Below are positions 4,177-4,194 of a stretch of 19,162 nucleotides of DNA, piece by piece; the first letter of the stretch is position 1; each line of letters opens with the position of its first letter. The position numbers were made by a program, and so were the translations under genes. The notes under the pieces were generated by a model. The model was given only the letters and a program-made list of their open reading frames with translations. It ran no database searches and was not told where the DNA came from. The DNA is taken from NCBI RefSeq assembly GCF_003334255.1, contig NZ_QOWU01000072.1; one strand, written 5' to 3'. The stretch comes from Escherichia coli (lineage in GTDB: Bacteria > Pseudomonadota > Gammaproteobacteria > Enterobacterales > Enterobacteriaceae).

Positions 4177-4194
4177 TGTAAAACCCCGTTTACA
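4177..4194. promoter_or_regulatory. TyrR box in the aroG promoter
   Basis: TGTAAAaccccgTTTACA is a perfect TGTAAA-N6-TTTACA palindrome about 70 bp upstream of the aroG start. Confidence 0.85.

Follow-up and report, generated by a model that had tools for sequence, protein, structure and literature searches.

The region upstream of aroG raises the question of whether the palindrome that lies there is an operator through which TyrR acts on this gene, or whether its bases have another explanation. We addressed this question in a window of 19,162 bases of Escherichia coli DNA, by which we mean the whole stretch that was analysed, and read the sequence TGTAAAACCCCGTTTACA directly at exactly 4177-4194. 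It is composed of the arms TGTAAA and TTTACA around the six central bases ACCCCG (4183-4188), is listed here without a strand as a TyrR strong box and aroG operator, matches the consensus TGTAAA-N6-TTTACA at 12 of 12 positions, and continues as a palindrome for one more base on each side (GTGTAAA ... TTTACAC, 4176-4195). According to PMC4374768, a strong TyrR box has at least 10 of 12 matches and an invariant G and C located 14 bp apart; the aroG box exceeds this number of matches, and its invariant G (4178) and C (4193) are 14 bp apart, as the definition demands. The exact pattern occurred once in the window, 200 dinucleotide-preserving shuffles did not contain it, and by our arithmetic about 0.001 such matches per window would be expected by chance. 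When up to three mismatches were allowed, four further matches appeared, every one with three mismatches, and the resulting total of 5 against 7.5 expected was not above chance. Thus, the perfect strong-box palindrome claimed by the first-pass annotation was borne out and is unique in the window, and the distance to the aroG start, which had been given as about 70 bp, is exactly 70 bases (4195-4264) from the end of the box to the ATG at 4265.

The window corresponds to positions 781369-800530 of MG1655 (NC_000913.3); it is E. coli K-12 DNA that extends from lysZ to ybhD and carries lysZ, lysQ, nadA, pnuC, zitB, ybgS, aroG, gpmA, galMKTE, modFE, acrZ, modABC, ybhA, pgl, and ybhD. Positions 3832-4432 are identical to MG1655 base for base, and the aroG gene (4265-5317, + strand, 350 amino acids), delimited by its open reading frame and annotation, is identical to b0754 of MG1655, which is annotated as the Phe-sensitive 3-deoxy-7-phosphoheptulonate synthase (DAHP synthase). 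Each of the 5426 complete E. coli genomes contained the 451 bases around the box, with the gene at this place annotated as aroG, and the 60 bases at 4165-4224 were 100% identical in 5306 of these 5426 genomes. In the E. coli collection, the aroG promoter region was matched 5429 times, twice on plasmids, which indicates that a small number of strains have an additional copy of it on a plasmid. As natural operator variants, we observed an altered centre (ACGCCG) in E. coli SCPM-O-B-8794 and a left arm reading TGTAAG, with 11 of 12 matches, in the type strain of Escherichia albertii.

Up to position 19068 the window is identical to MG1655 except at 10911, between the modF 3' end and the gal promoter region, where it has C and MG1655 has T; it differs again at 19069 (T in the window, C in MG1655), within ybhD just ahead of an IS1 junction, and diverges fully from 19086. 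The final 77 bases (19086-19162) represent one end of an IS1 element (GGTGATGCTGCCAACTTACTGATT...), and the match to MG1655 breaks off inside ybhD. Among the matches listed, 14 complete E. coli genomes covered at least 80% of a query spanning the ybhD/IS1 junction, and in 12 complete genomes covering the query the two halves matched as separate, non-contiguous pieces; the IS1 insertion in ybhD thus looks specific to the source strain. At the opposite end, the window carries the tRNA-Lys(UUU) genes lysZ (1-76) and lysQ (209-284), and the RtT repeat element (Rfam RF00391) is present there twice, at 8-175 and 315-440.

A consensus scan of the + strand beside aroG revealed a single promoter-like site, with a -35 hexamer TTTACA at 4189-4194, a 17-base spacer, and a -10 hexamer TAGATT at 4212-4217; the -35 hexamer consists of the same bases as the right arm of the box, and the -10 hexamer was near-invariant over 92 distinct orthologous upstream regions. 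For the transcription start, coordinates were converted from U00096.2 to U00096.3 with an offset that we take to be +777 in this region, possibly with an error of 1 base. The published Cappable-seq start on the + strand at 784815 (U00096.2; score 1902; PMC4782308 supplement) was shifted by this offset, and the verified window offset of 781368 was subtracted, which placed the aroG start (an A) at 4224 on the + strand; the neighbouring starts on this strand, from ybgS to the 5' end of aroG, had scores below 10 in the same supplement. This start lies 7 bases past the -10 hexamer, and the promoter therefore shows a spacer within 16-18 bases, a start 5-9 bases after the -10, and conserved hexamers, as expected of a sigma-70 promoter. 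Relative to the start, the box spans -47 to -30 with its centre at -38.5, covering the -35 of the promoter of an aromatic-pathway gene, a position compatible with the repression or activation that a strong box exerts. The start site is a more useful landmark for the position of the box than the ATG. It is located 30 bases downstream of the box, and the doubt that the first-pass annotation had attached to a distant transcription start did not materialize.

In the ybgS-aroG intergenic region, no second TyrR box with at least 8 matches and the G/C invariants was found; the aroG operator is a single-box arrangement. The box lies upstream of the start and is thus not transcribed from the aroG promoter; a transcribed RNA element at the box was considered and rejected on this ground, and no Rfam family was found there. 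Downstream of the start, the aroG leader comprises 41 bases (4224-4264, + strand) and contains a TGGAA (4253-4257, + strand) that is conserved ahead of the ATG across the orthologous upstream regions. A mini-ORF of seven codons (MATLEQT, 4245-4268), whose TGA overlaps the aroG ATG (ATGA), was also observed, and 82 of the 119 orthologous loci listed had a mini-ORF ending at such an overlapping TGA, with variable peptides. We rejected a leader peptide as its explanation, as it is missing in 37 of the 119 loci listed, for example in Citrobacter; it probably has no significance of its own beside the conserved ribosome-binding TGGAA.

The evolutionary conservation of the box was analyzed in at least 120 Enterobacterales aroG loci, one genome per species, which were located independently of the box by back-translating the first 12 codons of AroG into a degenerate query; each locus was scored by its best match within 250 bases upstream of aroG. 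Among the 120 loci listed, 89 had a box with 12 of 12 matches and 3 had one with 11, and all 89 perfect boxes were situated at aroG, with none elsewhere in 1.07 Mb of fetched DNA. With the window and one further locus (L001), both of which have the identical E. coli box, these made up 94 boxes, and 72 of the 94 ended exactly 70 bases before the ATG, among the loci listed. Over 92 distinct upstream sequences, column conservation was highest at both arms and at the -10 hexamer. The arms were invariant in 89-92 of the 120 loci listed, and the central six bases took 34 forms. More importantly, the left arm TGTAAA was conserved as strongly as the -35 hexamer, yet it has no promoter role, a pattern that a DNA-binding protein acting as a dimer would be expected to leave. 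The distance between the box and aroG stayed at about 70 bases among box-bearing genomes, while the ybgS-aroG intergenic region ranged from 194 to 348 bases; these observations tie the box to aroG and not to ybgS.

The distribution of the left arm was lineage dependent. In Serratia, Pantoea, Winslowiella, Yersinia, Hafnia, Rouxiella, and Ewingella, the promoter TTTACA-17-TA(G/A/C)ATT was kept at the same place, and the left arm was degenerate, leaving 7-10 of 12 matches overall; in Rouxiella, Ewingella, and 'Hafnia' psychrotolerans, merely xCTTAA-N6-TTTACA was found (compared loci L038, L056, L106, and L066). The arrangement TTTACA-17-TAGATT was common to all sampled Enterobacterales, and the left arm occurred only in Enterobacteriaceae and in Rahnella and Chimaeribacter. 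Four Rahnella loci (L006, L023, L041, and L089) had a box with 12 or 11 matches 75-76 bases before aroG, and the Chimaeribacter locus (L045) had one with 11, so that the box is patchy within Yersiniaceae, which suggests either an older site that is decaying or an independent gain. Horizontal transfer of aroG into Rahnella from Enterobacteriaceae was rejected as unlikely, because the AroG of Rahnella is closest to that of the box-lacking Rouxiella/Ewingella group (identity of 0.92-0.96, versus 0.88-0.89 to E. coli). From these patterns it might be proposed that the operator was built onto a pre-existing -35 hexamer and, separately, that the G+C-rich centre of the aroG box described below is a selected tuning feature; we regard this proposal as speculative and rather improbable. 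If it were true, a repressor site would have arisen from a promoter element, with patchy gain or loss afterwards.

That aroG is controlled by TyrR has been described before. PMC4374768, with reference to Baseggio et al. (1990), describes phenylalanine- and tryptophan-dependent repression of aroG through a strong box that fits the consensus perfectly and overlaps the -35, and it ascribes the low, constant expression of aroG to competition between TyrR and RNA polymerase. The same paper is self-contradictory, since the Introduction places the aroG box over the -35 and the Discussion places it over the -10; the sequence, with the box at 4177-4194 and the -10 at 4212-4217, sides with the -35 overlap and against the Discussion. 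PMC4174253 and PMC5791370 also count aroG as TyrR-repressed, PMC5791370 reports that aroG mRNA was not significantly changed in one TyrR helix-turn-helix mutant, and in the text of one comparative-genomics paper aroG is missing from the E. coli genes named as TyrR targets. The exact box sequence gave no match in a literature text search. Taken together, the identity of aroG, the strong-box definition, and PMC4374768 support the repression of the Phe-sensitive DAHP synthase gene by TyrR that the first-pass annotation had assigned, and its remark that this is known biology was correct, as the site is the one described in PMC4374768 with reference to Baseggio et al. (1990).

We are thus close to certain that the palindrome is a strong TyrR box and serves the E. 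coli aroG promoter as its single operator. In the mechanism that we propose, the C-terminal helix-turn-helix domains of a TyrR dimer would contact the two arms, TGTAAA and TTTACA. Since the box extends from -47 to -30 and its right arm doubles as the -35, the bound protein should compete for this DNA with sigma-70 region 4, and probably also with the alpha C-terminal domain, of RNA polymerase. Transcription of aroG would be lowered when TyrR carries phenylalanine or tryptophan, and repression would occur by simple occupancy of one box and hence be partial. The layout, the start, and the conservation come from our analysis, TyrR binding and the dependence on phenylalanine and tryptophan come from the literature, and the steric competition is what we infer. 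For binding of TyrR to this box without the help of a neighbouring one, the source is PMC4374768 with its reference to Baseggio et al. (1990). A bridging hexamer on a strong and a weak box, as at aroF, aroL, and tyrP, was rejected as the mechanism at aroG because the ybgS-aroG intergenic region has no second box; a single box with no adjacent weak box points to simple occupancy and not to tyrosine-dependent hexamer bridging.

Other readings of the palindrome had to be weighed against this one. It could be a mere promoter feature, that is, a -35 hexamer with a chance reverse complement 6 bases upstream and no bound regulator, and this would account for half of the palindrome, as TTTACA is indeed the -35 and is kept in genera that lack the left arm. 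However, PMC4374768 reports TyrR-dependent repression, TGTAAA stays unchanged across about 90 distinct orthologous regions in which the bases between the arms vary freely, and the chance expectation given above for a 12 of 12 match is far too low to make such a coincidence anything but very improbable. Since TGT-N-ACA palindromes are common to several bacterial regulators, the site might instead be served mainly by another regulator of this kind, such as CRP or another helix-turn-helix dimer. The CRP consensus is TGTGA-N6-TCACA, in which the G and C are 12 apart. At aroG, the half-sites and their 6-base spacing are exactly those of TyrR, with the G and C 14 apart, the arms reach the maximum score of a matrix built from eight other TyrR boxes, and the regulated gene belongs to the aromatic pathway, so that we give hardly any credence to a regulator other than TyrR.

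The box also lies within a shared, divergent intergenic region of 315 bases, and it could act on ybgS, either activating it from upstream or serving it alongside aroG, all the more as TyrR can activate from upstream positions at other promoters according to PMC4374768. It is, however, about 230 bases from the ybgS ATG, and about 140 bases separate it from the sole promoter-like site on that strand (4038-4011). In conjunction with the distance to aroG, which is fixed at about 70 bases in spite of the variable intergenic length noted above, this makes a role at ybgS most unlikely. We thus retained the reading of the palindrome as the TyrR operator of aroG.

The central six bases of the box were atypical and affected the weight-matrix scans. 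As a comparison set, we used the upstream regions of aroP, aroL, tyrR, tyrP, aroF, mtr, and tyrB from MG1655, which contained eight boxes with 10 or 11 matches and none with 12, so that the only perfect box in the set was that of aroG. The centre ACCCCG has 5 of 6 G/C, versus 0-2 of 6 in the eight other E. coli strong boxes; an A+T-rich centre, which is typical of those boxes but outside the published definition, is therefore absent at aroG. The orthologous aroG box centres had a mean of 4.1 of 6 G/C (n = 93), and the first (A) and last (G) bases of the centre were about 90% conserved in them. With a matrix of the arms only (12 columns, trained on the eight boxes), the aroG box reached the highest score attainable and came first among the sites of the window, at 17-21 bits compared with about 8-10 bits for the runner-up. 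With an 18-column matrix, it received only 5-10 bits and rank 4-5 in the window, below the 15-25 bits of the training sites, because its centre is G+C-rich and the training set is small. The matrix check suggested in the first-pass annotation was thus passed by the arms and not by the full-length site, and the low 18-column score reflects a weakness of the test and does not count against the aroG site. If the centre is modelled from few sites, a matrix can falsely trigger a refutation by sub-threshold score, and the experimentally established aroG site can escape scans in which the central six bases are included. The G+C-rich centre could also weaken an otherwise perfect operator and thereby keep repression partial and cofactor-dependent.

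These results indicated that the aroG TyrR operator is real, conserved, and already known, and that our analysis adds only its phylogenetic footprint, its lineage distribution, and its atypical G+C-rich centre. Beyond annotation, the significance is small, with modest practical value in what was learned about weight-matrix scans and about the lineages. The window carries an intact wild-type aroG regulatory region, and aroG is routinely deregulated in strains engineered for aromatic compounds; the comparative data, judged from upstream sequence, point to the Enterobacterales that probably do, and those that probably do not, place aroG under TyrR control.

Compared with known systems, the box is the same site as the aroG operator of E. 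coli K-12 (Baseggio, Davies and Davidson 1990, J Bacteriol 172:2547), with no sequence difference. The strong box of tyrP (TGTACATTTATATTTACA) resembles it in overlapping the -35, in serving as a repressor site (PMC4374768), and in sharing the same arm consensus; however, the tyrP box has 11 of 12 matches and an A+T-rich centre, whereas the aroG box has 12 of 12 and a G+C-rich one, and tyrP pairs its strong box with an adjacent weak box for tyrosine-dependent hexamer repression, whereas aroG has one box only. The strong boxes of aroF, aroL, mtr, aroP, and tyrR are likewise 18-base palindromes with the G and C 14 apart, but theirs have 10-11 of 12 matches, and several of them, unlike that of aroG, have weak-box partners or activator roles.
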